DNA of 64,000 nt from IMG/VR virus record IMGVR_UViG_3300045988_144476. One strand, written 5' to 3'. The position numbers and the translations under genes are program-made. Under the pieces are notes generated by a model. The model saw only the letters and a list, made by a program, of their open reading frames with translations, was not told where the DNA came from and searched no databases. The stretch is from a virus. Positions 15,401 to 48,264 of the stretch are shown one piece after another (position 1 is the first letter of the stretch; each line of letters starts with the position of its first letter).

Positions 15401-18400
15401 ATCTTTTGTTTGGGAAGCATTAAATATAATATCTCCCTTTTTCAGATTTTCGAAATGTGGACCACCTGGTAATAAACTCCACACACCATCACGAACAATA
15501 GATTCCGTACCTACTTCATTTGTAAGGGCAGTCTCATTCTGATTTAAAGCAACATTACCACCTGCATGAGCAGAAGAAAGTGGCTTCAGGTTAAGCATAT
15601 TATAAGCAGTACCATCAGCATGAGCGATTGAGGTCATTGTGCCAGTAGCTTGTACCTTTTTAGTGTATACAGCAGTTCCAAATATTGTAGGAGCAGTTTT
15701 AGGATAACTACCTAAAGTATAATTTGCAGTACCAGATATGTCTGGAGCTGTTGTTGGATGATCACCCATAGTATAATTTGCTTGACCTTTTATATCATCA
15801 GCTACTTTAGGTTCATCACCTTTTTTATAATTTACAGTAATGCTTGCAGGATTTGATTCTATCTGTGATTTAATTGCATCGACATTTCCTACATTACCTT
15901 CTTCTACACCAATTGAAATTTGTACTTCAGGAGGAAGTTGAGCAATTTCATTTACTAATTCTGATACTTTGTCATCTTGCACAATAGCATCAATAGTAAC
16001 ACCTTTTCCTTGAAGTTCAGAAATTCTCGCCTGTAATTGATCTACTAATTCAGCACCTTGAGTTTCGGCTGTAACCTGTACTTTTTTATCATGGATTTGC
16101 TGCAGAAGATCTATTAAAGCCTGAACTTTTTCTGCATCTTCAACATCTCCATCTATTGTAAACTTTGTTTGTTCTTTAGAGAGTTCTTGAATTTTAGATT
16201 CTAGATTGTCGATAGACATAGAATCAGCGTCTATGTCAAGATCAATTTTAGAATTTATTTTTCCATCACTTTGAAGTTGTTTTACATCTTCAAGAGCACT
16301 ATCTGCACTTGCTTTAAGCTCTTCAATTTCTGAAGAGTCAACTTCCGGCTTAAGAACACCCAATCCTTCAAGAGCCTGTACAAGCTGGTCTTTCGTTAAA
16401 CCGGCCTGATTAGCAAGATCTTGTAATGCATCTTCAGCTTGTTCCATACCTTCAACATTGTAAGCACCGTCACCAAGTTGGATTCCTTCAAGATCAGTAG
16501 CAGTATATTGTTTTAGAGCGTTGAAATCAGCTTCAGTTGCTTCTGCATTTGCTTCGTGAGCCTGCTTAACTGCTTCAAGAGAATTCGCATATTCTTTAGC
16601 TGCAGTCGGATCAGAAATTCCCATCTCTTCTGCAGTGAGAGGAGAATCAAATGTTCCAATACCTTTATCGTGTAGCATCTGATTAAAAGCATCTTCGTCA
16701 ACTTCGAACTCAGGAGTTAATTTAATCTTATTATCCTTAGCTAATTGCTGAATACGATCATATAATCCTTGAGCATATTCCTGTTGTGCCGGATCATCTT
16801 TCACCTGTTGGTATTCTTTTGCAAAATCATTAATTGTCTGTTTTGCAGTATTCAGATTTTGCACTTCACGATCAGTTGCGCCATTTACATATGTATCAAG
16901 AGCAGTATTAGCATCATTAACCTGATTCTTTAAATCATCCACAACTTGAGCTTGCTGTTCAATCGCATATTGTGGTGCACCATTGGCAACTAATTCAGAG
17001 TATTTTTCTTGTGCAGAAATAAGATCTTTAGTCTTTTTGGTAACATCAGCCTCTCCTTCGGCTATAGATGAAATATTTGTAACAACTCCACCCATATCTT
17101 CGTAACGGCCAATGTAATCCTTGAATTGTTCTTCACTCATTCCAACTGCTTTGGCTGCAACATCGGAATCAGCAAATGTCATTTGCCATTGTTTAGAGCC
17201 ATCTTCAAGAGTTTTATAAGTAGCAAGTCCTTTTGATTGTAATAAATCAAGGAATTTTAATGGGCCAGATTTATCATCTGTATAATATGGTTTCCACTTA
17301 TTATAATTCTCAATGAAATTATCAGCATCTGTGAATCCATAAGGAGAGAAGTAAGCGGCTTTCTCTTTAAAATCATCTGTACCAATTTCACCATTATCGT
17401 ACATTTCTTTTAAAGATTCTAACTTACTTTTAGTTGCCTTATAATGATCTCCGGCATTTGGAGTGCTTTCAGCATTAATACCCTTTTGCCATTGACTGGT
17501 CTGTTCCTGCATATTTTTATACTGAGCCATATATTCATTTTGAAGATTCTTAAGTTCTTCAAGTTTTTGTTTTTCTGACTCAATAATATTACCATTTGAA
17601 TCGTGGATTTTCTTCTCTTGATCAGCAATCTGAGATGCTAAATCTTTTGAAACCATTTCATTTTGGGCTTCAGAAAGCTCCTGGAATCTATCAGTATTTA
17701 ACTGTAATCCTTTTGCAGATCTTGTAAATAATCCACTTATATCAGTTCCCTGAGCAGTAAGATCACTAAACTGAGTAACAAGATTCTTCACAGAGTCACT
17801 GGTTAATCCAGTTTCACTATTTGTTTCTCCAATAGCAGTACTCAAAGCACTGGTCAGATTTGTAACATCAGTAATAGGAAGATTCTGGATTTCTTCAAGC
17901 CATCCAGCCTGAGAAGCTTTCATATTTTCGATGGACATTTGAGCAGACTGGATTTGATCCTGGTATCCTTTGATCTTCTCATTGTCTTCATCAGTAAGAG
18001 GAGAGATACCTTTACTTTCTCTAATTGTACGGATATTATCCTGGTAATCCTTAATCTGTTTATTCAGATTTGAAATCTGAGCATTACCATTCTCAACAAG
18101 ATTGTTGTAATCCTGTGCAGTTGCTTTCTGATTTAATGCAGATTTATTACTCATTAGGGTCTGCATATCTGAAGCGTCAGTCTGAAGTCTAGTTAAATCT
18201 TTAGAGAGATTTTCAAGATCCTGATCATTCGCATCAAGATGAATTTGTGGACGTAATTCATCAATTTTTGCAATCCATTCATCAAGACTAGCAGTAGCCA
18301 TAGAAGGATCCATAGACAATTTTACAATTGCTTGTTGAGCTACTTTATCACCAGAATATTTATCGAAAAGATTAGTAAGGGTATTTTCTGCATTATCCTT

Positions 18401-20383
18401 TAAGAATTCAGATCCTTTTAAATTTGACCGAACTCGTTTGATTACATCATCCTGAACGTTGCTCATATCAAATCCCGCAGTATTAATACCATCCAAAATA
18501 CTTTGAACATATTTATCTGCAGCAGCTAATTCCTTCGGATCAGTCGTATCTTTTACAGCATCACGAATCTTTCCAATAGCAGTAGAAGCTTTATCGGTTG
18601 CAAGTTTCTGCAAGCCTGTCTGTAAATCATCTGTCTCAGTAGCAAGTTCTGGGAATTGCTGAATAAGATCTGTGATATCAGAACTCTTCATATCACCGGA
18701 TTTCAGGGAATCCATAGCAGTCTTGATATTAGACATACTTGACTGGAAATTATCTGTTACGGTATCAATGTCTGTTGCTGTGTCTTCAGCTGCATTCTTG
18801 AAGAGAGAAGAAAAAGTTTTGGATGTATCTTCGGAAGAAGCTTTAGATTCTTCCATTGCTTTATTCCAATTGGAAGTAAGTGTACCTATTCCCCAATCAT
18901 TCTCTTCAGGATCAAGACCATTATTCTGGAGATAATTCCAGAAAGTTTCTATATCTTTATCTGATTTATCCTTAAAAAATGCATCAGCGATTGAGCCGCC
19001 AGAAGTACTCGGAAGTTTTGACATAAATGCAAAAGTATCTTTAAGATTTTCTTTTACACCTTCAATATTTAATGCTTCCGGATCAGCTATAGCCATGATA
19101 TAAGATGCCAAATCATCTTGTGATACATTTTTATCTCCAAGTGCTGATTTGAGATCAGAATAATCTTTATTACTATTCAGAGCATCAAGAATTCCCTTGG
19201 AACCTTTAGACTTACCAATACTTTCAAGTTTTGTCTGTAAGTCTGCATAATCAGCGAGAGCAAAAAGATTGTTTAGTTTGTCCTCTGTGTCGGAAGATGA
19301 ACCTATGAGATTTGAGTAATTATCAATAAGAGAATTAACCTGGTCAATGGTACCCTGGTATTTCTTATCAAGAACTGTACCATCATCTTTAAGCATACTC
19401 TGTGACTGATCTGAGATATTAGAAATCATTTCAGAAAGTTCTGATTTTTGAGTATCAATACCTTCTTGCTGTCTCTCAAGAGTTTTATTTTCCTCTTCGG
19501 TAATTAGGTCCATATTATCGCTATGACCTTTTTTAATATTTTCATAGGCGGTATCATATCTATCCTGTAGATGTTGGATGTAATCCATTTTTGCCTGAGC
19601 TTCATCAAGATCATTAACATATACTTTGGCTTGTGGATTATAAATTCCACTACCGTCAGAGAAATAATCCTGCTGTAGAGATTTCTTCTTTAGATCTTTT
19701 TGTGCAGCATCTGCCTCAGCAGTTTTGGCACTGTCAGCTAATTTTTGTTTCAATGATACTTGGGCACCAAGAAGTTCATTCTGATCCTGAAGAGTATTTA
19801 ATTCTTGACTCTCTTCTAGTGATCTGTTTTCTTTTGCTCGAAGCTCTTGAATACGATCTTGATTAGTTGCGTATGCAGATTGTGCGGTTTCAAGATCAGA
19901 TTGAGCTGTTTCATTCTTCTCTTGAGCTTTTTGGTATTTCTTTGTGGTGGTTGCTTTTGTAAGATCAAATTGATTATCAAGACCTTTCCATGTAGCTGTA
20001 ACTGCTGCAATGCCTAATGAAAGAATTAATTCTGGAGCAATTGCTTTAAGCACAGATCCAATACCGGATAATACACCACTAGCTTTTCCAGTGACTCCTT
20101 TAGAACCAAATAAGAAACTTTTAATGTCTACAGTTTTGGTAGCATTGTCAAGAGCCTTTTCAACCTCTTCTTTGGTATGCTCTTCACCAAATTTATTCTT
20201 AACAGCTTCAAAAATCTGATCTGTTGATAGGAATTTTTGATTGCCTTTTCTATCGGTGTTTACACGATAAGCCCATTTCATTGCTGTCTCAAAATCTGAG
20301 AATCCACCAAATGCCGCATTTAAATCTTCTTTTGTACCTGTTTTAAATGCATTTTTTAGTTTTCCGATTTTACTTAATGACAT
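12407..20383 (-). CDS. tape measure protein, distal part (TMP-B, 2658 aa)
   Basis: Hydrophobic N-terminal segment (GVLSGIGSVLKAIAPELILSLGIAAVTATW) followed by about 2500 aa of Lys/Glu/Gln/Asn coiled coil. Two TMP-end-like motifs: GTESIVRDGVWSLLPGGPHFENLKKGDIIFNASQTKDLL (~15400-15540) and PGETILTQEFTKQL (C-terminus). Followed by Dit and Tal. ATG at 20383 has no Shine-Dalgarno. Confidence 0.75.
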   Translation of the reverse strand: MSLSKIGKLKNAFKTGTKEDLNAAFGGFSDFETAMKWAYRVNTDRKGNQKFLSTDQIFEAVKNKFGEEHTKEEVEKALDNATKTVDIKSFLFGSKGVTGKASGVLSGIGSVLKAIAPELILSLGIAAVTATWKGLDNQFDLTKATTTKKYQKAQEKNETAQSDLETAQSAYATNQDRIQELRAKENRSLEESQELNTLQDQNELLGAQVSLKQKLADSAKTAEADAAQKDLKKKSLQQDYFSDGSGIYNPQAKVYVNDLDEAQAKMDYIQHLQDRYDTAYENIKKGHSDNMDLITEEENKTLERQQEGIDTQKSELSEMISNISDQSQSMLKDDGTVLDKKYQGTIDQVNSLIDNYSNLIGSSSDTEDKLNNLFALADYADLQTKLESIGKSKGSKGILDALNSNKDYSDLKSALGDKNVSQDDLASYIMAIADPEALNIEGVKENLKDTFAFMSKLPSTSGGSIADAFFKDKSDKDIETFWNYLQNNGLDPEENDWGIGTLTSNWNKAMEESKASSEDTSKTFSSLFKNAAEDTATDIDTVTDNFQSSMSNIKTAMDSLKSGDMKSSDITDLIQQFPELATETDDLQTGLQKLATDKASTAIGKIRDAVKDTTDPKELAAADKYVQSILDGINTAGFDMSNVQDDVIKRVRSNLKGSEFLKDNAENTLTNLFDKYSGDKVAQQAIVKLSMDPSMATASLDEWIAKIDELRPQIHLDANDQDLENLSKDLTRLQTDASDMQTLMSNKSALNQKATAQDYNNLVENGNAQISNLNKQIKDYQDNIRTIRESKGISPLTDEDNEKIKGYQDQIQSAQMSIENMKASQAGWLEEIQNLPITDVTNLTSALSTAIGETNSETGLTSDSVKNLVTQFSDLTAQGTDISGLFTRSAKGLQLNTDRFQELSEAQNEMVSKDLASQIADQEKKIHDSNGNIIESEKQKLEELKNLQNEYMAQYKNMQEQTSQWQKGINAESTPNAGDHYKATKSKLESLKEMYDNGEIGTDDFKEKAAYFSPYGFTDADNFIENYNKWKPYYTDDKSGPLKFLDLLQSKGLATYKTLEDGSKQWQMTFADSDVAAKAVGMSEEQFKDYIGRYEDMGGVVTNISSIAEGEADVTKKTKDLISAQEKYSELVANGAPQYAIEQQAQVVDDLKNQVNDANTALDTYVNGATDREVQNLNTAKQTINDFAKEYQQVKDDPAQQEYAQGLYDRIQQLAKDNKIKLTPEFEVDEDAFNQMLHDKGIGTFDSPLTAEEMGISDPTAAKEYANSLEAVKQAHEANAEATEADFNALKQYTATDLEGIQLGDGAYNVEGMEQAEDALQDLANQAGLTKDQLVQALEGLGVLKPEVDSSEIEELKASADSALEDVKQLQSDGKINSKIDLDIDADSMSIDNLESKIQELSKEQTKFTIDGDVEDAEKVQALIDLLQQIHDKKVQVTAETQGAELVDQLQARISELQGKGVTIDAIVQDDKVSELVNEIAQLPPEVQISIGVEEGNVGNVDAIKSQIESNPASITVNYKKGDEPKVADDIKGQANYTMGDHPTTAPDISGTANYTLGSYPKTAPTIFGTAVYTKKVQATGTMTSIAHADGTAYNMLNLKPLSSAHAGGNVALNQNETALTNEVGTESIVRDGVWSLLPGGPHFENLKKGDIIFNASQTKDLLEHGRTNSNARAYAQGSLGSNAYALTGFNFKDTSTRKSTSSSSSNKKSSGSNSGSGSGSGKKNKSSSKSSSKKYLDDIVDWFERLVKKLENRIDLNAAKAENTYKLANKETYINKQLKDNQELQKDYAKGAKMYTKKSDKFAKDIGLSADLKNKVKNGKIDLAKLSDDNKKKVEAYQKWYDKINDCNKAIEELKQKEKELYQQKLNNITERYDALIGVYSSYNETLDSLNSAREEKGASQAPNSDYTNTIRNQISSNQTQADLIYQEIQKYQTAYNEFAKKYGPDDTATKEAKATLEGLNKSYYDIIQSTAEYENKLKEIQLTYDQWQVDKYQRASDKLSDSRDYKEKNNYKGSGNDLTENDYLNAIKTNDKTAIALNNRRNDIINQMSQYSENSTQYQDLAKDLADINSSIIDTANSTAELKKSIVDLRFKAFSDIQDDLNDYIDNLNDLQDMMDSDTFLNDDGSFTKQGLSNILLISKEMDAYKQQIVDYRQQLSEVQELYDNHMITLDEYEDATKDAVSNINKASKSLYSSQQNMLKAYEDQITKVNKSLQDNIDKRKDALSAKKDYYDYDKTLKDKNKDIDTLKAQIAALEGTTNASAKARLAQLKADLKDKEDDLADTKYEHQIDLESKGYDNLSEQANDALDKTLQAVKSNTELQKSVINNMLKEVQNSYSDAYSNIQKTIEDTGYKTSDMFDDLIKKAQLTNKTISEIPTNVPKTNTDEIDSQRPDKSGSDNAVNNALNSQDPSGSNLTVETIEQRQAREQAEAAAAAAQKAKAAVESAANTKSKLQEWYNSVPTGKVTSSKFKEKHHDFYYYFWKKNKKVGQKDFEQVAKILGHNYIASKPYKDWKKSWKDKILKELKGYGFSKGGVVRQLIPADANSFLGDAILKNGDTGFAPINPGETILTQEFTKQLKPATATMSQFNDMLSGKLPNIPASNQENTFNSNVTINVDSISSDVDVKKLAKEVSNTVMNDYSKYMRKDMMKLTGRNR

Positions 20384-20386
20384 GTA
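20350..20386 (-). repeat. left arm of the island-flanking inverted repeat (covers the TMP-B start codon and first codons)
   Basis: The minus strand reads ATACATGTCATTAAGTAAAATCGGAAAACTAAAAAATG. Its partner is at 23936-23969 on the plus strand. Confidence 0.7.
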
Positions 20387-20405
20387 TAAAATTATCAGGT
20401 ATAAT
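20377..20405 (+). promoter_or_regulatory. sigma-70-like promoter for the Zn-ribbon gene
   Basis: ATGACA-17 nt-TATAAT. The -35 element overlaps the TMP-B start codon on the other strand. RBS AAAGGAGAG and ATG 20437 lie downstream. Confidence 0.55.
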
Positions 20406-20436
20406 GATGTTATAAAGATGCAAAGGAGAGATTAAA

Positions 20437-21024
20437 ATGGCTTTAATAAAATGTCCTGAATGTGGTAAGGAAGTTTCCAATAAAGCTCCAGCGTGCATAC
20501 ATTGTGGTTTCCCATTGAGTGAACTCAAAAAAGAAGGCACTTGTAAAATAAATGATCAAGAAGTTGATCTGATAAGGATCAAAAAATTATATGATTCATT
20601 ACCAGATGAATGTAAAAAAATTATATATAAAAGTTGTCGAACAAACGCAACAAAAACAGAAAAATATATTTGTTCATGTTCTCCGGATACATATACTGTA
20701 GAAGAAAGTAATAAAATTTATGATATTTATATGGATATGATATTTCCAATCCAAAAACAATTTAATTGGTTTGGTGCTAATGAGTATTTAGTTCACAGAT
20801 TCCTTGTAGAATGCATCGATCACAACTTTGAATACTTTGAGTTCAATACCTCAGATTATCCTTCTCCCGGATCTCAAAATCAACTTCGTTGTCCAAAATG
20901 TGGTTCAACTTCAATCGTTCCAGAAAAAAGAGGATACGATATTATGTGGGGATTTTTAGGATCTGAGAGAATCGTATATAATGTATGTCAGAAGTGTGGA
21001 CATAAGTGGAAGCCTGGAAAATAA
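20437..21024 (+). CDS. double zinc-ribbon protein (195 aa)
   Basis: N-terminal CPECG..CIHCG and C-terminal CPKCG..CQKCG ribbons, with a good RBS. Confidence 0.75.
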
Positions 21025-21277
21025 GGAGCAGTTACTTAATTGTTTTGTCAATCATATGTATAACGCATTTTTGGAATGCCAGAATCATTCAAACGAGAAT
21101 TAATAATTTGCTGTAATTTTTCTTGCTCTTTTTCAAATTGCCACCAGTAGATTACTTTTAGTATATTTTGATGTTTTGGTGTGGGTATAAGGTATAACAT
21201 GTTGATCAGCTCACTTTCAAGAGGGAATAATGAATATAAGAAAAATAAAGAAAACGATATATATACAACCGATATAA

Positions 21278-21442
21278 TTATTCACTTATGTCATGTTTTT
21301 GGTCTTGACAATCTGTATCTGATGAAGTGACCGGTATAAAACATTGAGTGAATATATATTTACAAAGTTCTTCTGTGTTTGTTTCAGTTATAGGCATACT
21401 GTCTGAATAAATGGTAGACACTTGTTCTGATTGTGTATTCAA
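21278..21442 (-). CDS. possible small ORF (54 aa, TTG start)
   Basis: GAGGTGA lies 5 nt before the TTG. Found by hand because it is below the ORF-track size cut-off. An in-frame ATG is at 21397. Confidence 0.3.
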   Translation of the reverse strand: MNTQSEQVSTIYSDSMPITETNTEELCKYIFTQCFIPVTSSDTDCQDQKHDISE

Positions 21443-21504
21443 TTAAATCACCTCGATTCTAATAAAAGTGTGGTTATAAGTGGTGGCTGGGGAGATAAAT
21501 AATT

Positions 21505-22320
21505 ATGTATATTGATACCTATGATACTAATAACGAAGATGAAAGATTTAAAAAATATGTAGAAATTCTTAAATCCCATGATCAGCTAAAAAAATCATTA
21601 TGGAATAAGCTTAATACTCCAGAAGTGTTAAAATTAGAAGAAGAATCAGATACTCTTTTTAAAGAATATATGAAACTAGATAGAAAACTTCAAAGAGAGG
21701 TTGCGTTTTATAATAGTTATTTGAAATCTGATTCTGATTGTATAGATTATTGCGATGTAAAATTTCATGAAGATCTAGATTTTAATCTTCCTGAAGAAAT
21801 TCAAGAGTTGGCTAATACATTTCATAAGAAAGATAAAGAATATAGTTGTGCTTGTAATGCCCACAAAGAAGCATTATGTAAAAATTTTGTAAAGCTAATA
21901 TCAGATATTACTCCTGAAAATTGTTTTAGAGATAATTCATTTGGAAGTACTCGTGATGTCTTCTCAGATTTTTATAATTCATGCAAACCATTCATGATCC
22001 TTAACATGGGGTTATACGAGCTTATTATAGTTCAAGATATTTTTACAGATAAGTATCATCATACAAATTATTCTATTACTATGTATGAATTGAAAAACAT
22101 GTCAAACTTTGATGTAAAAGTAAGATGTGAAAAGTTCTTCGATCAATTTAATAAAGAATTAGAACCATATCGACAAAACTTACGTTCTAACTTCGAACAT
22201 AAAACTCCTGTTCTGACACCTTTTAAAGATGCATATACTCTTTTTGCTCAGACCAGATCAGAAGAATATGGCAGAACTAGACAATATCTGATTATTGGAT
22301 GTGTGGTGTATCAAAAATAG
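21505..22320 (+). CDS. hypothetical protein (271 aa)
   Basis: ATG with GGGGAGA RBS. No recognisable motif. Confidence 0.7.
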   Translation: MYIDTYDTNNEDERFKKYVEILKSHDQLKKSLWNKLNTPEVLKLEEESDTLFKEYMKLDRKLQREVAFYNSYLKSDSDCIDYCDVKFHEDLDFNLPEEIQELANTFHKKDKEYSCACNAHKEALCKNFVKLISDITPENCFRDNSFGSTRDVFSDFYNSCKPFMILNMGLYELIIVQDIFTDKYHHTNYSITMYELKNMSNFDVKVRCEKFFDQFNKELEPYRQNLRSNFEHKTPVLTPFKDAYTLFAQTRSEEYGRTRQYLIIGCVVYQK

Positions 22321-22365
22321 CAGAAAATACGTTCTGATTTACATATTATATGAAAATGGTATAAT
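22321..22365 (+). promoter_or_regulatory. conserved box plus sigma-70-like promoter (cassette 1)
   Basis: CAGAAAATACGTTCTGATTTACA contains the inverted repeat CAGAA-N6-TTCTG. Promoter is TTTACA-16 nt-TATAAT. A near-identical copy is at 23073. Confidence 0.6.
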
Positions 22366-22555
22366 TTACCATGTAGATGGTGAGTGTACGCACCGCCCAC
22401 CTGTGCGTATCTACAAGCAACCCGTTAACCTATACACCATGAGAAAGTAGAGGTGTATGCTTATTTCCAGGAGTCTACATGATTCTGGTAGTCGTATCAA
22501 GTTCATCTTAGCTTCCAAACAAATAGTGAATCCGTCACTAGATTGGAGGTGAAAG

Positions 22556-22738
22556 ATGAATAATAATGATCGACTATTTAAGCTTGCAAGTTTAACACTT
22601 TTCTTGGTAGTTATAGTAGCTATAGTTTGGATAATTCTAGACCATAATCCAATCGTTTTAAAGGCAACTATTAACATATTGAAATTTTCTGCTGAGATTA
22701 GTTGCGAGTTTGCAAGCGTTGCATCAGGCTGCAATTAA
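22556..22738 (+). CDS. small single-pass membrane protein (60 aa)
   Basis: RBS GGAGGTG. One transmembrane segment (LASLTLFLVVIVAIVWIIL). Preceded by a ~190-nt structured leader. Confidence 0.6.
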   Translation: MNNNDRLFKLASLTLFLVVIVAIVWIILDHNPIVLKATINILKFSAEISCEFASVASGCN

Positions 22739-22920
22739 GTTGACCGTGGGTCGTTTATAGCCTGAGAATCAGAGGGTAATTCCTTTGATGTAAAACGGTG
22801 CCTTTTGCTCCAACAAGAGGTACCGTTATCAATAGAAATACCATGACATTTTACAATATCAGATTTTATTATTTGAGATTTCTCTTTGCTTATAAACAGC
22901 GAATCTAATTTATTATTCAT
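22735..22920 (-). CDS. possible small ORF (61 aa) convergent with the membrane-protein gene
   Basis: AAGGAA RBS. Its 3' end overlaps the plus-strand ORF by 4 nt. It could instead mark an antisense RNA. Confidence 0.3.
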   Translation of the reverse strand: MNNKLDSLFISKEKSQIIKSDIVKCHGISIDNGTSCWSKRHRFTSKELPSDSQAINDPRST

Positions 22921-23072
22921 AATAGTTCCTTTTATCCATTTTATTATATATTTGAAAATAAAGCTCCTGGATATTCCAAGAGCTTTGTTATCGGCAATCG
23001 TTCACGATTATTTTTTAAACAGGGGAGTGCCCGGATCAGCCGATATGATTCCCTCAGCATGTGAGCCTGTTA

Positions 23073-23118
23073 CAGAAAATATGTTCTGATTTACAAAAAT
23101 ACCAAATATTGGTAATAT
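23073..23118 (+). promoter_or_regulatory. conserved box plus sigma-70-like promoter (cassette 2)
   Basis: CAGAAAATATGTTCTGATTTACA matches the 22321 box at 22 of 23 positions. Promoter is TTTACA-17 nt-TAATAT. Confidence 0.6.
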
Positions 23119-23308
23119 ACCAATAGGTATTTTGTGGTTGTAGATGATGCATTACAACACGATTGCACGGCAAATACCTGATTTATTCTTTAATAAATCA
23201 TGCATAAGCAAAGCTATACAATCTTGTATACGCAATGCGAAAAGAGAATTCTGCCCGTTCTGGGCGAAACTTCCCAAATAAGAAATTTTTATTAGGGGAG
23301 GAGGTGAA

Positions 23309-23494
23309 ATGAATATGATTGAATTGTTTAGTATTTTTGGAGGTCTTCTAGTAATTATAATCTTAGCTCATATGTATTATAGTTCAAAGAAACACACCAT
23401 TGATCAGATTTGTAATCATCCAGAATTATCTGATGAGAAAGTTGAATCGATCACTAAAATGATGAAAAGACAGTACAAAGATCGTATCAAATAA
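23309..23494 (+). CDS. small single-pass membrane protein (61 aa)
   Basis: RBS GGGGAGGAGGTG. N-terminal transmembrane segment (IELFSIFGGLLVIIILAHMYY) and a charged C-terminus. Preceded by a ~190-nt structured leader. Confidence 0.65.
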   Translation: MNMIELFSIFGGLLVIIILAHMYYSSKKHTIDQICNHPELSDEKVESITKMMKRQYKDRIK

Positions 23495-23569
23495 TTCTAA
23501 TGTCATTTCCCAATTATGAATTCTCCTTTAGATTTAAAGTTTTAATAGATTTTTAGAAATGTTTACGAA

Positions 23570-23598
23570 AGAGGCCGGGAGTATTCTCGGTCTTTTTT
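23570..23598 (+). terminator. rho-independent terminator (usable in both directions)
   Basis: AGGCCGGGAG-TATT-CTCGGTCT hairpin followed by TTTTT on the plus strand. An A-run precedes it, so a weaker minus-strand version also exists. Confidence 0.65.
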
Positions 23599-23985
23599 CT
23601 CTTCATTCACAGTAGAAGAGTAGTACTGAGTGGATTTCACCACCGTTACAGTGGTACATGCATTAAAAGCATATGTCTTTCCGAACTTAACATATACTCC
23701 GAGGAAGGGTGCACTCTCTACACTTCCTGATTATTCATATGCTTCCATCACCATAACTTTCGTTATTGCTTCTAGTGTATCACATATTACTAAACGTAAA
23801 TCAGGTTGGCACATGCGTCACTCTGCGAACTTGCGTTCACTTCACTGCATAAGCAGAATAACAGGCTTCGATGTTTTATTCCTCTATTTATTTATAGCCG
23901 CTAGTCTCCACACATTGATTATTAATCTCTATGTAGATAGGCTCATTATCAAAATCGGAAAAATAAATGTAACCCTGAGTTTGGG
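23599..23985 (-). ncRNA. candidate structured RNA / long structured 3' UTR downstream of TMP-A
   Basis: No credible ORF and visibly higher GC than the surroundings. On the minus strand it has GNRA-capped hairpins GAAC-GCAA-GTTC (23827-23838) and TAAC-GAAA-GTTA (23754-23765), plus AGGAAG/CTTCCT (23703-23728). Confidence 0.4.
23936..23969 (+). repeat. right arm of the island-flanking inverted repeat
   Basis: The plus strand reads ATAGGCTCATTATCAAAATCGGAAAAATAAATG. It shares a 12/12 core AAAATCGGAAAA plus TCATTA and TAAA..TG flanks with the minus strand at 20350-20386. Confidence 0.7.
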
Positions 23986-26900
23986 TCAACCTACGGCTGT
24001 TTTAAAACCACCACCAATTAAGAAATCTAATCCTTTTTTACCTGCATTCTTTACAGTCATTGCTGAGAAAATTGCAGTGATTAGAGCTGGTATTGGTCCT
24101 AAAGTTTTCTCTAATCCGGTAAATCCTTCTGTTAATCCATGTACAAAATCAAGTGCTCCACCTACTTGATCTGAATTATAGAAGTTTAACCAGAATTCGT
24201 CCATTTGAGTTTTAATGGCCTGGACTTTGCCATTGAAAGATTCCATGTATTTCTCTTGGTTTGCTTCAGCGTTACCTTGAGCATTTGTAGCTTCTTCAGC
24301 TAAAGACATGGAGTCTGTGAATGCGTCCAATATGTTCTTGAACTTGGATGTTTGTCTTGTCGCTGCGACATCAAATGCGATTTTTGCTTGCTGTGCATCA
24401 GTCAAATCATTCCATTTGGATTTCAGTTCGGATAATACCGTAACAATTCCACGGTCTGATCCATCTGGATTATAGACATCAACACCTATAGAATGCAGAG
24501 AAGCAGAAGCATTTGATAATGTTGCATTATCAACCTCATCTGCGTATTGTGGCATTTTACCGACTTTTGTGGTTCTGGTAATAATTGTCTTTAAAGCATT
24601 ACCAATTGAACTTCCATCTTCACGAGTTCTTTCAGCTACTTTTGCAGAAATAGCAGCTAATTGTTCATATGACATTCCGGCATCATAAGCAACCTGACCT
24701 GAAGCCTGTACAGCATCAGACATTACCTTAATACCTTTGGCATAATCCATACCCACGTTCGATGATATTTTATCCATTACATCTACTACATGCATAGAAG
24801 CATCAGCAGCAGAAGTAGATCCGTCTTCTAACATATGGAACTGCTGTAAAATACCCTGTACCTGGTCAGCAGCAGTAGAAGCATCAACACCACTTAAGTT
24901 ACTCAGAATAGCAGTCGGTTTAGCAGTTTCCTGAATTTCTTTTGAAGTAGTATTCATATTTGCATAGATCTGATAAATATCCATTGTATTATCAAGAGAC
25001 ATTGACAGATCTTTTGCCATATCAACAGCAGAAGTACCTAAATCAGATAATTGCTGTTTATTCATATCCATGGTATAACTGATAGTAGTTAAAGCCTTAT
25101 CATAATCCATGAATGTATTGAATCCTTCACGCATTTGTTGCCATGCCTGTTGCATAATTTGGATACTACCAACAGCATTTGCGACATCACCAAGAGCGGA
25201 AGTAAAGTTACCTTTTACAAGTCCTTTCAGACTATCTGAAAGAGATGTAAAACCAGATGTTCCGGATTTATTTGTATATTTCTCCATTGTACGGAGACTG
25301 TCATTTGCTTTTTCTATATTACCTGTAAGAGTAACAAGATTACCTGAAACATCTTTAAAAACTAATGATATAGAACCGGTACTTTTATTTATACTAGTTG
25401 AAACTTCATTAGTAAGACCAAGTTGAGATGCATAATTTCTTAGAGCAGAAGTAGCATCATCAATATCTTTTATGGTACCAAGAGTACCTTCTTGTAAAAT
25501 ACCTTTTCCATTTTTTCTATCATATCCAGAAGCAGTTTTTTGGAAATTTTCAATATCAGAAATGATATTATTAACAGAATCATGAAAATTATTTTCGTCA
25601 ATTTCTTTATTATTAAGTGAATCAACTAATTGATTGTATCGTGTTCTAAATTCAGTGATCTTATCTTTGTAGGCATCAATTTTATTTCCAGAATTTGCAA
25701 ATTTATTTAATTTATTTATTTGTTCTGCGAAATTAAGCTCGTCATTACCTGTCACAGTATTTTCATAATAATTCTTTAGATCTGTAAATTTTTCGGTCTG
25801 TTCTTGTATTTTATCAACATAATCTAAAATACCATTAGCATTTTTATTTTGATTAAATGCACTTTCAGCATCTTTAGTAGATGTTTTTATACTTTCTAAA
25901 TCAGCTTTTAAACGATCGGTTATACGACCTGCACTTTCAAGTTTGGTGAGATAACTATCGACTTGATTTAAGAATGACTTAGAATTATTTGAAATTAACT
26001 GATCTTGAGTAGCATTGGCTCTATTACGAATATCAAATATTGCATTTTCAGCAACTTCTTTCCCAAATATGCTATTTACTTGTGCACGAAGACTTTGATA
26101 TGCATTAGTATAATTTTCACCTAAAATCTTTCCGGCAGTAATATCGGCTCCATCTTTAGTAGCAAGACCAAGAAGTTTGTTTTCGTTATTTCTTTTGTTT
26201 GAATATGCCTTCTTCATCAATTCAATGATATTATTGTTTTTACCATCAAAATTAGAATAATCAGACATATCATCAAAAGCCTTTTGATATGAATCAAATT
26301 TCTTTTGATCTAAAATTCTGTCGGGATTTGATTTATTATTATCGTATACTGTATTATAAAAATCCCCAACTTCTTTTCGTAAAGATTTAATTTTATCTAC
26401 TTGAGCATTTACTTTTTCAATGTATTCATCTTTACCATATTTGCCAGAAGCTCCATTTGCCTGGATATTATATAAATCAACATATGCTTGTTTTAATTCT
26501 TTAACTTTAGCAATAGCAGAGTCATATGTTTGATTATAATCATCTATATTTTTCTGTGTATTTTCTTTCTGAAAAGCACTATATGCACCTTGTTCAGCTT
26601 CACCTAATTTACTTTTTTGGGTGTTATAAGCATTTACACGATCTTTTCCTAATACATCAGAATGCTGTTCAATAAATTTATCGGCATCCTCAATATTCTT
26701 TTGTTTATTATCAATTTCTTTGCGTAAATTGTTAATTAATTCATTAGAAGCACCTTTAGATTTAGCAGAAGATAATTCTTTATTTTTCTTCTCTAGTTTA
26801 GAAAGACCATTCATTAAATCGGTGTATTCAGAAATAATTTGATCTGAAATACGATTTCCCGCACGTTCGTTCATATCAATCCGATGTTGTTCAATTCCTT

Positions 26901-29775
26901 TTTGAATTGCCTCATCAAATTGTTCAGTCGTATATTCAGGATGTTCTTGAGCATAAGTCTCTGCATCTGCTCTTAAGCTCTTCATACGTCCCTTTAAATA
27001 TCCAATACGTTTTTTAGAAGCTTTAATATTAGATTGACTACTATTTTTGGCAATACCTGCCTCCATATCAGCAAGATCTTCACGTTCGGTCATTAATCTT
27101 TTTTCTATATTAATTGCTTCTGTCTCTAACGCTGCATATCCGCTTTTTATATCACCGCCAGATTGTCTCCATAAACCATCTGAATCTTTTGTGAGAGTTC
27201 TAGTGTATGATCGTCCGGTCTGATCGTCTTTGTAAACTGTAGTCTTTTTTCGACCATTAATGTCTTCCTTATTAGACACAAGTCTATAATTCTTATATGG
27301 ATTATCTTGTTCCAAAAACCCTAAAAGTTTTTCTGGAGAAAGTTTAAATCCATTATATGTACTACCTAAAAGATTTCCAGATTTATAACCAGTTAAAAAA
27401 TTCTCTTTATGAGCAATAAAACTTTGTTCGTTTTCAGCTGCTTGAGCATTTTTCTTAGCTTGTATAATACGAACTCTTTGTTCTTCTCTATCAGATTTGC
27501 TTTGAGCAGTATCTGTAGATACTTTTAATTTAGGCGCAGAAGTAACTTTATATTTTCTTTCTTCTTGTTTAACAGATTCTTCCTGCTTCTTAGCCGTATC
27601 CTCAGTAGCAACACCAAGTCTCTTAGTAGAATCAGCCATCTGATCAATATTTTCAGTGGCATTACCGGCAGCAGAAGCAACAGCATCATTGATATGATCA
27701 ACGGCAGTATCCACAGCATCTGCAGTCTTTTCTGTTTTCTTAGCTTGAGTGGTAGGAGATTTAGAAGAAGTAGATGTATCCTCTAAAGAATCACGAAGTG
27801 CATAATGAGTGTCAGAAAGAAAATATAATCCTTTAGTATCTTTACCAGATTTTTTACGAATTTTCCCTAATAATCTTTCTTCGTATCTTTCTGTTTTATC
27901 TAAATCTGCAATAGATAAATTTCCGTTATTTTTTTTGATATTTTGAGCAAACATCTGATTGACAAGTTTATCAGCTGCATTTCTAATACTATCATGTGAT
28001 AATAATGTACCATCAAAATTATTTATCTGATCATAAATTTGAGAAAAAATAGATAATCTTTGTTCTAACCCTTTTAATTCTGATTCGGCATCTTTCAAAT
28101 TAGTATTTTGATTTACATAAGGAGAATGTAAATTTAAAGCTTCTGCAGGTATACCATTTTTTAAAGCAGTTATATAATATTTTCTTGTTTTATATAAAGC
28201 TGCAGTTTCTGAAAAACTACCTTGTGGTATATCTGGATTTTCTCGAATTTGATCTAAATCTCTTGAAGCTGCCATAAATTTTGTGGCGGCATTTTTTTTA
28301 CCAGTAGCAGAATAATCAGCGTTTACAATTGAATCATATACAGAACCTTTCGAAGTAATATTCTGTGTAGGAGTAGTAGATTGAGTGGATTTCTTCTGGG
28401 TAGTTTTAGGTTTAGAAGAAGTAGATTTGGAAGTAGATTTCTTTTTAGGAGTGGTTGTTTTTGGAGCGAAACTAGAAACAGCTTTCTTTTCCGCATCTTG
28501 TTGCTCTAAGAATAGTTTGGCAGATTGTTCTTCATATATTTTTTTGAAAAATCCTGTAGTATCTTGTTCGAATATAAGGTTTTTTACGTCATCAAAATCT
28601 TGAAGATCTTTAAGACCTGTTCCACCCTTATATTTATACACTAGGAGATTTCCAAGAATACCAGCCTGAACAGTTGGGCTTAAGTCTTCATTTTGAAAAT
28701 CATGTTCCCGTCTGTATCTATTTAATGTTGCTCTTGACGTTTTAGCGTCATTTTTTTCAATAGCTTCTAGTATTTTATCTTTAGCATTAGATAATTCTCT
28801 ATTTTTAGTATCTAAAATATCACGTTTTCCTGCATCTTTAGCTTGGGCTGTCAGTCCAGTTTGCACTGACTTTAAAGCATCTATAACTTCTTTAGATCCA
28901 GCACCAATGGATTTTGCTGCTGTAATAAATACTGTAGCGATTCCTTCACCACCAGCTTCTAACGAAGTCTTTATATCGCCAATTAATGCTTTTTGAGATA
29001 CTTCTTCAGTAACAGATGTATTAAAACCGGGAATAAGTTCAGAATTTTTTTTGGTAAAATAATTTCTTGTGGCTACTTGATGACCACCTAAATTATCTGG
29101 AGTATTATTTTTATTAAATTGTTCAACAAGTCTGTCATGATAAGCAAGAACGTCCGCTTGTCTTTGTCGTGCAGCTAACATTTCATCTAAAGTTTCATAT
29201 TCTTCAGCTTTAAAAAGTCCAGACTTACTGCTATAAGATTCATTAATTTTTTTTATAATATTACCAATACGAAACAATTCTGCAATTTGTTCTTGATATT
29301 CACTAGAAATTTTATTCTTATTTATAAAAGAAGTAATTCCACCACGAACTCTTGAATCTAATTCAGAAGTAGACGCTAATTCTGGATATTGAGACATAAA
29401 ATCTTTTACATTAGCATTTTTACCTAATTGTGTTAAATTTTTTTTTGTAACGTTGGTAGTTGCATTTGAAATAGCACTTTCTAATGCCTTTGCATATGCT
29501 TTAGCGTCACTTAAAGTTTTCTTATCAAGATTTGATGGAAGTTTTACTTCTCCCATTAATGGAATTTTAGTTTCTTTATATTTAATCTCAGCTTCTGTTT
29601 TAATTGGCTTTTCAGCCTCTCTACGAGCTTTATCTATTTTTGATGTATCTGGGATAATAGTATCTTTTGTTTCATAATCTTTACTTGCTTCTTTTTTCCA
29701 TTCATCCCATAATTTTTTATCAACATTAATCGGAACATTTATTTCATGTTCGCCACTTGGTCCTTGATAACTCAT
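23986..29775 (-). CDS. tape measure protein, proximal part (TMP-A, 1929 aa)
   Basis: TP901-type TMP core-like stretch (AKDLSMSLDNTMDIYQ...SSIGNALKTIITRTTKVG), long coiled coils, a Ser/Thr/Lys linker and a hydrophobic Gly-rich C-terminus (PALITAIFSAMTV..FLIGGGF). RBS AGGTGAT. Confidence 0.85.
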   Translation of the reverse strand: MSYQGPSGEHEINVPINVDKKLWDEWKKEASKDYETKDTIIPDTSKIDKARREAEKPIKTEAEIKYKETKIPLMGEVKLPSNLDKKTLSDAKAYAKALESAISNATTNVTKKNLTQLGKNANVKDFMSQYPELASTSELDSRVRGGITSFINKNKISSEYQEQIAELFRIGNIIKKINESYSSKSGLFKAEEYETLDEMLAARQRQADVLAYHDRLVEQFNKNNTPDNLGGHQVATRNYFTKKNSELIPGFNTSVTEEVSQKALIGDIKTSLEAGGEGIATVFITAAKSIGAGSKEVIDALKSVQTGLTAQAKDAGKRDILDTKNRELSNAKDKILEAIEKNDAKTSRATLNRYRREHDFQNEDLSPTVQAGILGNLLVYKYKGGTGLKDLQDFDDVKNLIFEQDTTGFFKKIYEEQSAKLFLEQQDAEKKAVSSFAPKTTTPKKKSTSKSTSSKPKTTQKKSTQSTTPTQNITSKGSVYDSIVNADYSATGKKNAATKFMAASRDLDQIRENPDIPQGSFSETAALYKTRKYYITALKNGIPAEALNLHSPYVNQNTNLKDAESELKGLEQRLSIFSQIYDQINNFDGTLLSHDSIRNAADKLVNQMFAQNIKKNNGNLSIADLDKTERYEERLLGKIRKKSGKDTKGLYFLSDTHYALRDSLEDTSTSSKSPTTQAKKTEKTADAVDTAVDHINDAVASAAGNATENIDQMADSTKRLGVATEDTAKKQEESVKQEERKYKVTSAPKLKVSTDTAQSKSDREEQRVRIIQAKKNAQAAENEQSFIAHKENFLTGYKSGNLLGSTYNGFKLSPEKLLGFLEQDNPYKNYRLVSNKEDINGRKKTTVYKDDQTGRSYTRTLTKDSDGLWRQSGGDIKSGYAALETEAINIEKRLMTEREDLADMEAGIAKNSSQSNIKASKKRIGYLKGRMKSLRADAETYAQEHPEYTTEQFDEAIQKGIEQHRIDMNERAGNRISDQIISEYTDLMNGLSKLEKKNKELSSAKSKGASNELINNLRKEIDNKQKNIEDADKFIEQHSDVLGKDRVNAYNTQKSKLGEAEQGAYSAFQKENTQKNIDDYNQTYDSAIAKVKELKQAYVDLYNIQANGASGKYGKDEYIEKVNAQVDKIKSLRKEVGDFYNTVYDNNKSNPDRILDQKKFDSYQKAFDDMSDYSNFDGKNNNIIELMKKAYSNKRNNENKLLGLATKDGADITAGKILGENYTNAYQSLRAQVNSIFGKEVAENAIFDIRNRANATQDQLISNNSKSFLNQVDSYLTKLESAGRITDRLKADLESIKTSTKDAESAFNQNKNANGILDYVDKIQEQTEKFTDLKNYYENTVTGNDELNFAEQINKLNKFANSGNKIDAYKDKITEFRTRYNQLVDSLNNKEIDENNFHDSVNNIISDIENFQKTASGYDRKNGKGILQEGTLGTIKDIDDATSALRNYASQLGLTNEVSTSINKSTGSISLVFKDVSGNLVTLTGNIEKANDSLRTMEKYTNKSGTSGFTSLSDSLKGLVKGNFTSALGDVANAVGSIQIMQQAWQQMREGFNTFMDYDKALTTISYTMDMNKQQLSDLGTSAVDMAKDLSMSLDNTMDIYQIYANMNTTSKEIQETAKPTAILSNLSGVDASTAADQVQGILQQFHMLEDGSTSAADASMHVVDVMDKISSNVGMDYAKGIKVMSDAVQASGQVAYDAGMSYEQLAAISAKVAERTREDGSSIGNALKTIITRTTKVGKMPQYADEVDNATLSNASASLHSIGVDVYNPDGSDRGIVTVLSELKSKWNDLTDAQQAKIAFDVAATRQTSKFKNILDAFTDSMSLAEEATNAQGNAEANQEKYMESFNGKVQAIKTQMDEFWLNFYNSDQVGGALDFVHGLTEGFTGLEKTLGPIPALITAIFSAMTVKNAGKKGLDFLIGGGFKTAVG

Positions 29776-46634: not shown

Positions 46635-46709
46635 TAGATGTAGTAGGACTCGAACCTACAAAACTCTGATCCTAAGTCAGATGCGTCTGCCAAATTGCGC
46701 CATACATCC
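46635..46709 (-). tRNA. tRNA-Leu(TAG)-like: tRNA with anticodon UAG (Leu CUA/CUG decoder by anticodon) but a class-I short variable loop
   Basis: Acceptor GGATGTA/TACATCT, A73, anticodon arm TCTGA-CTTAGGA-TCAGA, 5-nt variable loop, T arm GTAGG-TTCGAGT-CCTAC. No encoded CCA. Confidence 0.75.
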
Positions 46710-46715
46710 AAAGAA

Positions 46716-46733
46716 GGGCAGTAAAGACTGCCC
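46716..46733 (-). terminator. terminator-like hairpin between the phosphoesterase gene and the tRNA
   Basis: GGGCAG-TCTTTA-CTGCCC followed by TTCTTTGG on the minus strand. Confidence 0.55.
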
Positions 46734-46777
46734 TGTATAGAAGTGTATAATATAAGCAGCAACGCCACTCGTATTAT

Positions 46778-47959
46778 TTAATGTAATTTATATTTATGTT
46801 CATCTACAAGTCCATCTAACTGGTCAAACACAAACATAGAAGCACCTGCGTTTGCAGTTTTATTGATAGACATACTATATGGATTCACTCCAATAATTGA
46901 TCGAACACTAATTACTTCAGAATTTCGTGCAACTTCTTCAGAAAAAGAAGAATGCCAGTGTCCTGTAAATAAATAGTCGATAGGCACTTCATGGATCTTC
47001 ATAATATCTTTCATTGTCTTATTCAGATCTTTTGTTTCAAAATGTCCACCTAAACATGTATAAATAGTTAACTGTGAATATGCTAATCCAGTAGGATTTT
47101 CAACAATTTTTACATTTGGATTATCTTTTAATCTGGCTTTCATCAAAGCTAACATAGATTTACTCATATCTTCATTATCAAAAGCATTTTTAGGTTGTCC
47201 TAATAATCGCAATTGATTATGATTTGATTTTTTAACCATTTGAAAAGTAATAAAAACATGTTTACTTAATTCATTCAGCCATTCAGATAAAAAGTTTGCA
47301 TATAAAATAGAAGAATCAATAACTCCATATTTTAACTGCATAAGCTGAGAATTAGCTCTTAATAAACCATCAAGAGCATCTCCTAAATCCCAAATATGTA
47401 AATGTGTAATTCCGTCTTTATTGATCTGATCAACAACTTTATAATATAATTCCCACATTCTATGTTCAAAAATTTCAGGACTATATTCATTAATGGTATA
47501 TCCATGAAGATCTTTTATATTAAATTCAACTCCGTAATGAGCATCAGAAATAGTAAGAAGATAAGCTTTTGTAGTTGGTTTTAAAATGATCGGTTCAGGC
47601 TTCTCTAATGGTTCAAGACATTTTACAGCTTCGCCAATTTTTTCAGCAATTAATTCATCTCGTGAATACTCACGTAACCATTTATTAAACTCAAGTTTTT
47701 CAGTTTGAAGTTTAATTCGTTCTTTTTTAATTGCAAGTTCTTCCGGTATATTAGAAATAGAAGAGGATGGAGTAATATTCCATCCTGCATCTATATACTC
47801 TAATAATAATTTTGATCCTTTTCGAATTGTATCACGATGTTCAATTTCTCCTAAAGCATCAGATCTAAAATCTGTTACATCTTGCCATTCGATAGATGAA
47901 TCAGTTTGCTTTCGTTTAATCAGATCAAGCTGTTCTTTTAAAAATTGATCTTTATCCAT
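46778..47959 (-). CDS. calcineurin-like metallophosphoesterase (393 aa)
   Basis: Motifs ISDAHYG, DLGDALDG and GHWHS in the canonical order. Confidence 0.65.
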   Translation of the reverse strand: MDKDQFLKEQLDLIKRKQTDSSIEWQDVTDFRSDALGEIEHRDTIRKGSKLLLEYIDAGWNITPSSSISNIPEELAIKKERIKLQTEKLEFNKWLREYSRDELIAEKIGEAVKCLEPLEKPEPIILKPTTKAYLLTISDAHYGVEFNIKDLHGYTINEYSPEIFEHRMWELYYKVVDQINKDGITHLHIWDLGDALDGLLRANSQLMQLKYGVIDSSILYANFLSEWLNELSKHVFITFQMVKKSNHNQLRLLGQPKNAFDNEDMSKSMLALMKARLKDNPNVKIVENPTGLAYSQLTIYTCLGGHFETKDLNKTMKDIMKIHEVPIDYLFTGHWHSSFSEEVARNSEVISVRSIIGVNPYSMSINKTANAGASMFVFDQLDGLVDEHKYKLH

Positions 47960-47968
47960 AAATTTACC

Positions 47969-48184: not shown

Positions 48185-48205
48185 AATTTTTCTCCTTGTA
48201 TTCCA

Positions 48206-48234
48206 TTGACATATATCAATGTTTGATATATAAT
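48206..48234 (+). promoter_or_regulatory. perfect consensus sigma-70 promoter pointing antisense into clpP
   Basis: TTGACA-17 nt-TATAAT (12/12 consensus positions). The -35 sits in the palindrome CATTGA-N6-TCAATG. Confidence 0.45.
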
Positions 48235-48264
48235 GTTATTTGTGAAAGATTAAATAAAATTCAA

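Follow-up and report, generated by a model that had tools for sequence, protein, structure and literature searches.

A putative group I-type intron carrying its own genes in the divided tape measure gene of a large phage

The tape measure gene in the IMG/VR virus record IMGVR_UViG_3300045988_144476 appears as two open reading frames (ORFs), TMP-A and TMP-B, with an island of genes on the opposite strand between them and an inverted repeat near the two borders of the island; the question is how two such halves could belong together and what the repeat does. The window (the whole stretch of DNA analysed, 64,000 nucleotides) comes from a large phage genome (~170-kb class) and contains a long run of structural genes on the minus strand. 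Within this run, TMP-A (23986-29775, minus strand) encodes 1,929 amino acids with a PhageMin_Tail domain and, near the C-terminus, matches to tape-measure PHROG families, and TMP-B (12407-20383, minus strand) encodes 2,658 amino acids without a strong family match of its own. The island between them measures 3.6 kb and contains four plausible plus-strand genes. Our answer, to which we give a probability of roughly 0.8, is that the island is a group I-type self-splicing intron in one very long tape measure gene. Searches of the locus and of the intron core against 50,697 phage records (megablast and blastn) gave no match, so that no close cultured phage was found; the closest annotated tape measures, those of the Lactococcus phage 949 group and of Bacillus phages, are about 25% identical.

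The inverted repeat and its conservation in relatives

The minus strand at 20386-20350 reads TACATGTCATTAAGTAAAATCGGAAAACTAAAAAATG and the plus strand at 23936-23969 reads GATAGGCTCATTATCAAAATCGGAAAAATAAATG. The initial annotation described the latter as an inverted copy of the TMP-B initiation region, and the description is accurate: there is an exact 12-mer pair (TTTTCCGATTTT at 20360, AAAATCGGAAAA at 23951), TCATTA and TAATGA agree at 6/6 positions, and a repeat search of the window lists the arm pair as 17 nucleotides with 94% complementarity. The stop codon of TMP-A (TGA, minus strand) is found at 23986-23988, 16 nucleotides from the arm, and the ATG of TMP-B (20383-20381) has no Shine-Dalgarno sequence upstream, both as first described. 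A bare repeat of this quality is unexceptional, because exact inverted 12-mers are common in the AT-rich window (78 k-mer pairs at most 5 kb apart), and this count speaks for a chance match without function. The position of the repeat is a different matter: when the 80 nucleotides beside the TMP-A stop codon were aligned to the reverse complement of the 80 nucleotides around the TMP-B start, none out of 5,000 dinucleotide shuffles attained the score of 31, and 9 out of 5,000 real-sequence pairs at equal spacing did.

Protein-guided scans of IMG/VR yielded 53 loci with the TMP-A C-terminus. In every related locus holding both halves the split falls at the identical codon, with 1.6-4.6 kb between the halves, and with 3.9-6.7 kb in the distant relatives. 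The distant clades were found by a pattern search for the most conserved motif, and their TMP-A C-termini are 22-28% identical to that of the window. The arms are present at both boundaries in all of the ~50 loci, with compensating changes, which is the outcome that the initial annotation had asked about. Conservation and co-variation of both arms extend over about 60 related phage contigs. As this conservation with compensatory changes extends across lineages at 22-40% protein identity, the comparative data refute a chance match, and we regard its probability as negligible.

The ~390 nucleotides which follow TMP-A are strongly conserved among the relatives, whereas TMP-B is only ~40% identical to that of the window, and the conservation of this block persists where the proteins share only 22-40% identity. 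In the family of the window, the first 21 nucleotides of TMP-B after the apparent start codon are also nearly invariant at the nucleotide level. Directly after them, at least six very different types of TMP-B N-terminus are found among genomes with a near-identical TMP-A C-terminus and ~390-nucleotide block, and the island therefore marks a recombination (mosaic) boundary in the tape measure gene.

Inverted repeats at the ends of a foreign and highly variable gene block are typical of transposable elements, so the repeat could be a DNA-level feature: an insertion scar, the terminal inverted repeats of a mobile element, or an inversion site. The initial annotation had offered DNA inversion or template switching as one of two readings. 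Against this, all 45 distinct versions of the island have one orientation, with the ribozyme-like end (described below) abutting TMP-A and a zinc-ribbon gene abutting TMP-B, and the cargo yielded no transposase, recombinase or invertase family. The arms are also not at the ends of the insert, since one lies inside the TMP-B coding sequence and the other 16 nucleotides inside the island. Moreover, the arms tolerate G·U-compatible substitutions (GGA to GGG opposite an unchanged U), which are sensible only for pairing in the minus-sense RNA. A feature of the DNA itself is thus very unlikely.

Exon guides and a core with group I topology

The other reading in the initial annotation was that the two arms pair in a continuous minus-strand transcript as an interrupted helix which joins the end of TMP-A to the start of TMP-B. 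Such a helix is supported by the relatives and is best read as an extended P10 which chooses a remote 3' splice site. The intron boundaries were set by the breaks in homology in ~50 relatives together with the geometry of P1 and P10. The proposed intron (20381-23988, minus strand) is 3,608 nucleotides long; it begins with the TMP-A stop codon UGA and ends with the G of the TMP-B 'ATG'. Exon 1 is TMP-A without its stop codon (23989-29775, minus strand; 1,929 codons) and ends in ACA GCC GUA GGU. Exon 2 is TMP-B without its ATG and including its stop codon (12407-20380, minus strand; 2,657 codons), and is collinear with unsplit tape measures. Positions in the minus-sense RNA are numbered so that intron nucleotide n corresponds to window position 23989 - n; all RNA elements below lie on the minus strand.

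P1 is formed by GUAGGU (23989-23994), with which exon 1 ends, and the internal guide sequence GCCUAU (23937-23942; intron nucleotides 47-52). Positions 23989 and 23988 flank the 5' splice site, and the U at the end of the exon is in a U·G wobble. All P1 cells of the alignment are standard pairs (100%). At the splice site itself, 10 of the 11 diverse sequences have U·G and one has C-G as aligned; the junction U is otherwise invariant. P1 also co-varies: GUAGGU/GCCUAU of the window corresponds to GUAGCU/GGCUGU in locus L048 and to CUAGAU/GUCUAG in distant clades.

The intron strand of P10, UAAUGA (23943-23948; nucleotides 41-46), lies directly 5' of the P1 guide and pairs with nucleotides +1 to +6 of exon 2. 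A further strand, UUUUCCGAUUUU (23951-23962; nucleotides 27-38), is the distal arm of the 12/12 core noted above and extends the pairing to exon 2 nucleotides +10 to +21. The first 21 nucleotides of exon 2, UCAUUA AGU AAAAUCGGAAAA (20360-20380), constitute the proximal arm. P10 and its extension are separated by a GA/AGU internal loop and together form an interrupted helix of 18 bp in the window. P10 was evaluated with RNAduplex for each haplotype, because MAFFT had misregistered the guide arm of the L016 clade and of L048. In the window's family, all 29 haplotypes are predicted to form the duplex (-14 to -22 kcal/mol), which always starts at exon 2 nucleotide +1 and ends beside the P1 guide. 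The changes within the arms in this family are in the internal loop, wobble-compatible (the GGA to GGG change) or compensated: exon AAAU faces intron AUUU in the L016 clade (exon A to U, intron U to A), and L048 has two double changes (exon AAUAUCGGGAAA with intron UUCCCGAUAU).

In the distant clades, exon 2 was recognised from the SLxxIG motif, its open reading frame and the G in front of it. L117 has an intron of 6,738 nucleotides, a junction of ttG followed by UCACUUAAAAAAAUAGGAG, P10 as GAGUGA/UCACUU and the extension CUUCUAUUU/AAAUAGGAG. L139 (5,316 nucleotides) has P10 as GAGUGA/UCACUC and the extension CUUCUAU/AUAGGAG, and L125 (3,915 nucleotides; junction aaG followed by CGAUUU) has AAAUCG/CGAUUU and is almost extension-free. 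The pairing segment directly adjoins the P1 strand in the window and in all three of these loci. A layout of 6 bp followed by a loop and 7-12 bp thus recurs with different sequences, as predicted by a functional RNA pairing.

Exon 1 is bound by a second helix, in which its nucleotides -10 to -5 (23993-23998) pair with GCGGCU at intron nucleotides 88-93 (23896-23901). Compensatory changes across clades affect four of its six pairs, and the helix is predicted by RNAalifold too; we know of no standard group I helix name for this pairing.

The conserved block following exon 1 can be folded into a ribozyme core comprising P1.1 to P9.1 (23594-23988; nucleotides 1 to ~392), to which nhmmer finds one match per genome. 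The P1.1 hairpin, UGACCC...GGGUUA (23970-23988; nucleotides 1-6/14-19), has compensatory changes in four of six pairs, and the 5' ends of the intron across relatives are UGACCC, UAACCC, CAGCC or UAGCC. P2 comprises nucleotides 53-64/70-81. P3 (105-110/283-288) has its 5' strand GAGGAA at 23879-23884 and its partner at 23701-23706, and its first pair is G-C, C-G or A-U depending on the relative. The P4-P5-P6 domain (23720-23874) contains P4 (115-120/172-178), P5a, P5b with a GNRA loop, and P6 (179-181/266-269) to P6d, which ends in a GNRA loop as well; many of its pairs are compensatory. P7 (273, 275-279/331-336; 5' strand 23710-23716, partner 23653-23658) reads G[A]GUGCA/UGUACC, with a bulged A274 followed by the invariant G275-C335, a candidate guanosine-binding pair whose modelled geometry fits; a P7 pair is seen as A-U, U-A, C-G and G-C, and P7 forms a pseudoknot with P3. 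The P8 hairpin (23666-23700; 289-297/315-323) is 100% paired and is followed by a J8/7 of seven nucleotides, UAAUGCA; P9 (346-349/356-359) and P9.1 (369-374/385-390) complete the core. The helix order (P3-J3/4-P4-P5-P4'-P6-J6/7-P7-P3'-P8-J8/7-P7'-P9) is exactly that of group I introns, including the P3/P7 pseudoknot, and the linkers J3/4, J6/7 and J8/7 are 3-7 nucleotides long.

RNAalifold predicted 86 pairs from 15 sequences, 24 of them with compensatory changes, and the full model (95 pairs) was hand-built from these pairs and by inspection. On the first alignment, 94.9% of the cells are paired with 23 compensatory pairs; none of 500 shuffles reached this, and controls in which the pairing partners were slid gave 31-45%. 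On alignment A3 (11 diverse sequences) the values are 92.1% and 47 compensatory pairs, again with 0/500 shuffles, compared with 33-46% and 9-14 compensatory pairs in the slid controls. G·U pairs occur in many helices, which fixes the strand of this RNA as the sense strand of the tape measure gene.

The nucleotide before exon 2 is an invariant G (20381 in the window), as in the terminal guanosine (omega-G) of group I introns, for which it is the candidate, and the two bases preceding it vary (AT, GT, TT, TA, AA). The resulting triplet is ATG in most relatives, GTG in L001, TTG in L048, TAG in L016, L042, L044, L051 and L114, and AAG in L125. These data bear on a reading without splicing, in which TMP-A and TMP-B are separate proteins and the long-range helix serves termination-reinitiation or is an RNase III site, as the initial annotation had suggested. 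The helix is indeed real and co-varying, a stop codon directly follows exon 1 and ATG, GTG or TTG precedes exon 2 in most relatives, and no Shine-Dalgarno sequence was found before TMP-B in any relative examined. However, reinitiation at an AUG is not a general mechanism at these loci, because some of them, in two lineages, lack a start codon there and have TAG (five, one of them in an isolate genome) or AAG. The TAG loci have their first in-frame start 12-27 codons further on, at a place which differs by locus, with SLSKIGNLKKA conserved after the TAG, and L125 is start-codon-free for 44 codons. In L048 the TMP-A frame continues past the junction, where it is stop-free. The helix abuts the guide which pairs with the last six nucleotides of TMP-A, within a conserved 390-nucleotide RNA of group I topology; this core, the U·G wobble, the invariant G and the adjoining guides for exon 1 and exon 2 would all be left unexplained. 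TMP-A alone would also stop mid-protein relative to the continuous proteins of L123 and Lactococcus phage 949. Of the earlier proposal, therefore, the helix stands and the two mechanisms attached to it do not fit; separate proteins without splicing are quite unlikely.

The proposed splicing and the points against it

Under the splicing interpretation, transcription of the minus strand would run from TMP-A through the island into TMP-B, and the first ~390 nucleotides of the intron would fold as the catalytic core. The GCCUAU guide and the GUAGGU end of exon 1 would set the splice-site U in the U·G wobble of P1, while UAAUGA would pair with the start of exon 2 and, after the loop, UUUUCCGAUUUU with exon 2 nucleotides +10 to +21. 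The long helix would hold the 3' exon, which lies 3.2 kb past the core, beside the 5' exon, and the pairing of exon 1 nucleotides -10 to -5 with intron nucleotides 88-93 would secure the 5' exon. The guanosine site of P7 would then receive the intron-terminal G, and in-frame ligation of the exons would give a junction of ACAGCCGUAGGU joined to UCAUUAAGUAAAAUCGG. With GGU joined to UCA the reading frame is kept (TAVG followed by SLSKIGK), and the product would have 1,929 + 2,657 = 4,586 amino acids. From the features of the locus we infer three things: that splicing takes place, that it does so in cis, and that the remote 3' splice site is the reason for the long P10.

An uninterrupted homologue exists in L123, where the tape measure is a single protein of 3,256 amino acids (L123:1335-11105). 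BLASTP of the conceptual spliced protein against it gives one alignment across the junction (E = 2e-21, query 5-400), in which SLSKIGK falls on SLGNIGR and NAFKTG is common to both just downstream. For a fused construct of 1,200 amino acids, the match to the tape measure family phrog_4211 is a single stretch which spans the junction (residues 24-1181, profile 408-1445), while TMP-B alone matched no tape-measure family. In Lactococcus phage 949, the point homologous to the junction lies about one third into a continuous protein of 3,276 amino acids; the BLASTP alignment of the fused junction ends 12 residues before the junction, and tells no more than that this point lies within a continuous protein.

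The exons could also be joined in trans, with the core on the TMP-A transcript and a separate TMP-B transcript starting in the cargo, brought together by the 18-bp P10 and docking of the terminal G. The guides for the two exons are unusually long (6 + 6 bp for exon 1, 6 + 12 bp for exon 2), the intron is unconserved near the 3' splice site, strong promoter-like sites drive the cargo convergently and the introns reach 6.7 kb, all of which would suit such a mode. Yet there is no convincing minus-strand promoter in the island (28 promoter-like sites vs 21.6 +/- 5.0 in shuffles, with the best on the plus strand), and a terminator scan found no minus-strand terminator-like site in the island, and thus between the halves, other than the P1.1 hairpin. 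Cis-splicing of phage introns with an ORF after the core is established, and a neighbouring intron in the relatives is arranged likewise. We consider trans-splicing unlikely.

Several findings weigh against a cis-spliced group I intron. The Rfam model RF00028 matched neither the window nor the island nor this intron in the relatives, and for the core (446-nucleotide stretch) and L117 there was no match either at the gathering threshold or at E <= 10; membership of the group I family therefore rests on the structural model and not on a curated profile. The intron has no sequence just upstream of the 3' splice site that is conserved among the relatives, and P9.0 is for this reason unassigned. 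A protein search with the fused junction in a collection of 5.8 billion sequences gave 44 matches, none of which covers more than half of the query. The DNA pattern of the ligated junction had no match in viral contigs and two in metagenome contigs, which we attribute to chance because both are in short unrelated ORFs, and no spliced or intron-less copy of this lineage was found. Transcription of the tape measure gene must also traverse 3 kb of convergent genes, and the P1.1 hairpin with its U-rich stretch resembles a weak terminator. Finally, TMP-B could be initiated independently in most lineages from the ATG, GTG or TTG at the junction, and some TMP-B may be made on its own as well.

As a stop codon and a hairpin directly follow the GGU codon, translational bypassing of the T4 gene 60 type was considered; it was rejected for want of a matching landing codon and because the gap measures 3.6 kb.

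Cargo genes and comparison with known introns

Between the core and the 3' splice site the window contains 3.2 kb of cargo, the content of which varies between relatives. The gene beside the 3' splice site (20437-21024, plus strand, antisense to the tape measure gene) encodes a double zinc-ribbon protein of 195 amino acids, with an N-terminal ribbon (M[A/S]LIKCPECG...) and a second one at the C-terminus. Its promoter-like site (20377-20405) overlaps the 3' splice site, the -35 element ATGACA being at 20377-20382. The gene is found at the same place in 45/45 distinct introns and in the distant L117 (17256-17915, minus strand), and may be part of the intron and not random cargo. It is followed by a gene for a 271-amino-acid protein (21505-22320, plus strand) without a family match, and by two genes for small hydrophobic proteins, of 60 amino acids (22556-22738, plus strand; promoter-like site 22338-22365) and 61 amino acids (23309-23494, plus strand; promoter-like site 23090-23118). 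Both have leaders of ~190 nucleotides (22366-22555 and 23119-23308), which are unconserved in the relatives beyond the promoter-like repeat. This is a 23-nucleotide repeat, CAGAAAATAYGTTCTGATTTACA, with a -35-like hexamer, present at 22321-22343 and 23073-23095 before the two genes. The first leader contains overlapping complementary segments at ~22375-22415 (GTAGAT GGTG..TACGCAC..CACC..GTGCGTA ATCTAC). The two genes could be a toxin-like or regulated small-protein cassette. A terminator-like hairpin on the plus strand (23567-23598) is the only one inside the island apart from the minus-strand P1.1, and the two best promoter-like sites of the window (11/12 matches) are on the plus strand.

Two small ORFs inside the island are on the strand of the tape measure gene (21048-21200, 50 amino acids; 21278-21442, 54 amino acids, preceded by GAGGTG; no family matches), so that the cargo of the window is not purely antisense. 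In the 45 distinct versions, those cargo genes which look real run antisense to the tape measure gene and encode the zinc-ribbon protein, homologues of the 271-amino-acid protein, small hydrophobic proteins, DUF6173, DUF2513 and a 427-amino-acid protein; L117 adds a sense-strand GNAT acetyltransferase and an antisense trypsin-like peptidase. No homing endonuclease (LAGLIDADG, GIY-YIG, HNH, His-Cys box or PD-(D/E)xK) was found in the cargo of the window with Pfam, PHROGs, NCBIfam and PADLOC. Nor did the last two assign a function to any cargo protein or reveal a defence-system family.

The relatives carry up to three insertions in the tape measure gene. Many have one or two extra insertions of ~1.6-1.75 kb in TMP-A, absent from the window, each with a sense-strand ORF of 304-413 amino acids which has a GcrA-like N-terminus or a DUF4379 treble-clef zinc finger. 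Examples are L020:10835-12484, L028:7663-9267, L050:8244-10000 and L042:10835-12521, at positions 401/402 and 476/478 of the C-terminal 600 residues. In L028 the insertion aligns to the whole of the Rfam model Intron_gpI with 42.7 bits (E = 4e-9), which falls short of the gathering score of 50, and its core lies 5' of the ORF. These are different introns, since they are missed by the hidden Markov model (HMM) of the present core, and in this phage group the tape measure gene is a hot spot for introns. In L121, L122, L124, L127 (near 11236) and L141 (near 10449), exon 1 ends at the homologous place and is followed by other hairpin-initiated sequences (UGAGUGAUAACAUCAC..., UGACUCAAAAUCAUGAGUGA...), to which the core HMM has no match. 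They may be further intron families at the same site, and because these other clades stop there as well, the end of exon 1 seems to be a preferred intron position.

One of the TAG-variant loci, L114, is located at 412935-430149 of a 499-kb scaffold (QTYB01000001.1) from the isolate Ruminococcus sp. AM36-2AA, and is a close relative of the TAG-variant phage. Its placement suggests the host range and a prophage, or at least cell-associated, state, as well as an experimental system. Elsewhere in the window there are 10 tRNA genes, all on the minus strand (46635-53294), nine of which are clustered in 50749-53294.

If the splicing interpretation holds, the two tape measure ORFs reported by gene callers in every relative would be one protein, of ~4,586 amino acids in the window. 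Tail length usually follows the tape measure at 1.5 Å per residue, which would give a tail of ~0.7 µm. As judged from sequence, a group I intron would then tolerate 1.2-6.3 kb of foreign genes, among them antisense ones with promoter-like sites of their own, between its core and its 3' splice site, and the unusually long guide pairings with both exons would be a likely adaptation to this cargo. A more tentative proposal, which we find doubtful as it stands, is that these introns are a distinct group I lineage serving as a harbour for genes, with a ribozyme at the 5' end, a 3' splice site set only by the long exon guide (6 + 7 to 12 bp) and a second clamp on the 5' exon. An essential late gene could in that case take up and exchange kilobases of unrelated accessory genes, transcribed independently and mostly in antisense, without harm from their presence or expression; the latter could take place, for instance, in a prophage whose tape measure gene is silent. 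In a stronger form, antisense transcription or a break in the precursor may make splicing conditional or trans. Since the family is invisible to the standard Rfam model, similar introns have probably been missed in metagenomic phage genomes. With a recombination boundary at the intron, the locus is a useful case for following the influence of introns and accessory genes on the structural modules of phages.

In group II introns, two intron segments, the exon-binding sites EBS1 and EBS2, pair with adjacent stretches of the 5' exon. The present intron resembles them in logic only, as its guide pairs with exon 1 nucleotides -4 to -1 (or -6 to -1) and its nucleotides 88-93 with -10 to -5. A group II intron was considered on account of these two segments and rejected on the 5' end (no GUGYG), the topology, which is that of group I, and the ORF content; the intron has a terminal G and not a branch-point A, no domain V, no Rfam group II match and no reverse transcriptase ORF.

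Tape measure genes with group I introns are known; such introns have been described at three sites of the gene (TMP-IVS1, -IVS2 and -IVS3) in prophages of the Bacillus cereus group, where they belong to subgroups IA1 and IA2 (Tourasse and Kolstø 2008, PMC2504315). The present intron is like these in its location in the tape measure gene of a Firmicutes phage with several sites per gene, in having P1 and P10 fitted to each site, and in that some copies are without a homing endonuclease. Unlike them, it has no P7.1/P7.2 between P7 and P3', is RF00028-negative, is 1.6-6.7 kb long, is predicted to hold several mostly antisense, independently transcribed genes, and pairs with exon 2 over 16-18 bp. 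What is unusual here is thus the long pairing with the 3' exon, the second helix with the 5' exon, the long and mostly antisense cargo and the lack of an Rfam match.

A parallel in layout is the phage T4 nrdD (sunY) intron, reportedly treated by Michel et al. in 1992 (Genes Dev 6:1373), in which the core is said to precede the ORF and the 3' splice junction to be remote. Both introns have the core at the 5' end, a long coding insert and a 3' splice site which would have to be returned to the core by base pairing; the sunY intron reportedly differs in having one sense endonuclease ORF of ~0.8 kb and in pairing through conserved helices at the 3' end of the intron. In the present intron, 1.2-6.3 kb of unrelated genes take the place of that ORF, the 3' end of the intron is unconserved, and it is the exon itself which is paired, over 6 + 7 to 12 bp.

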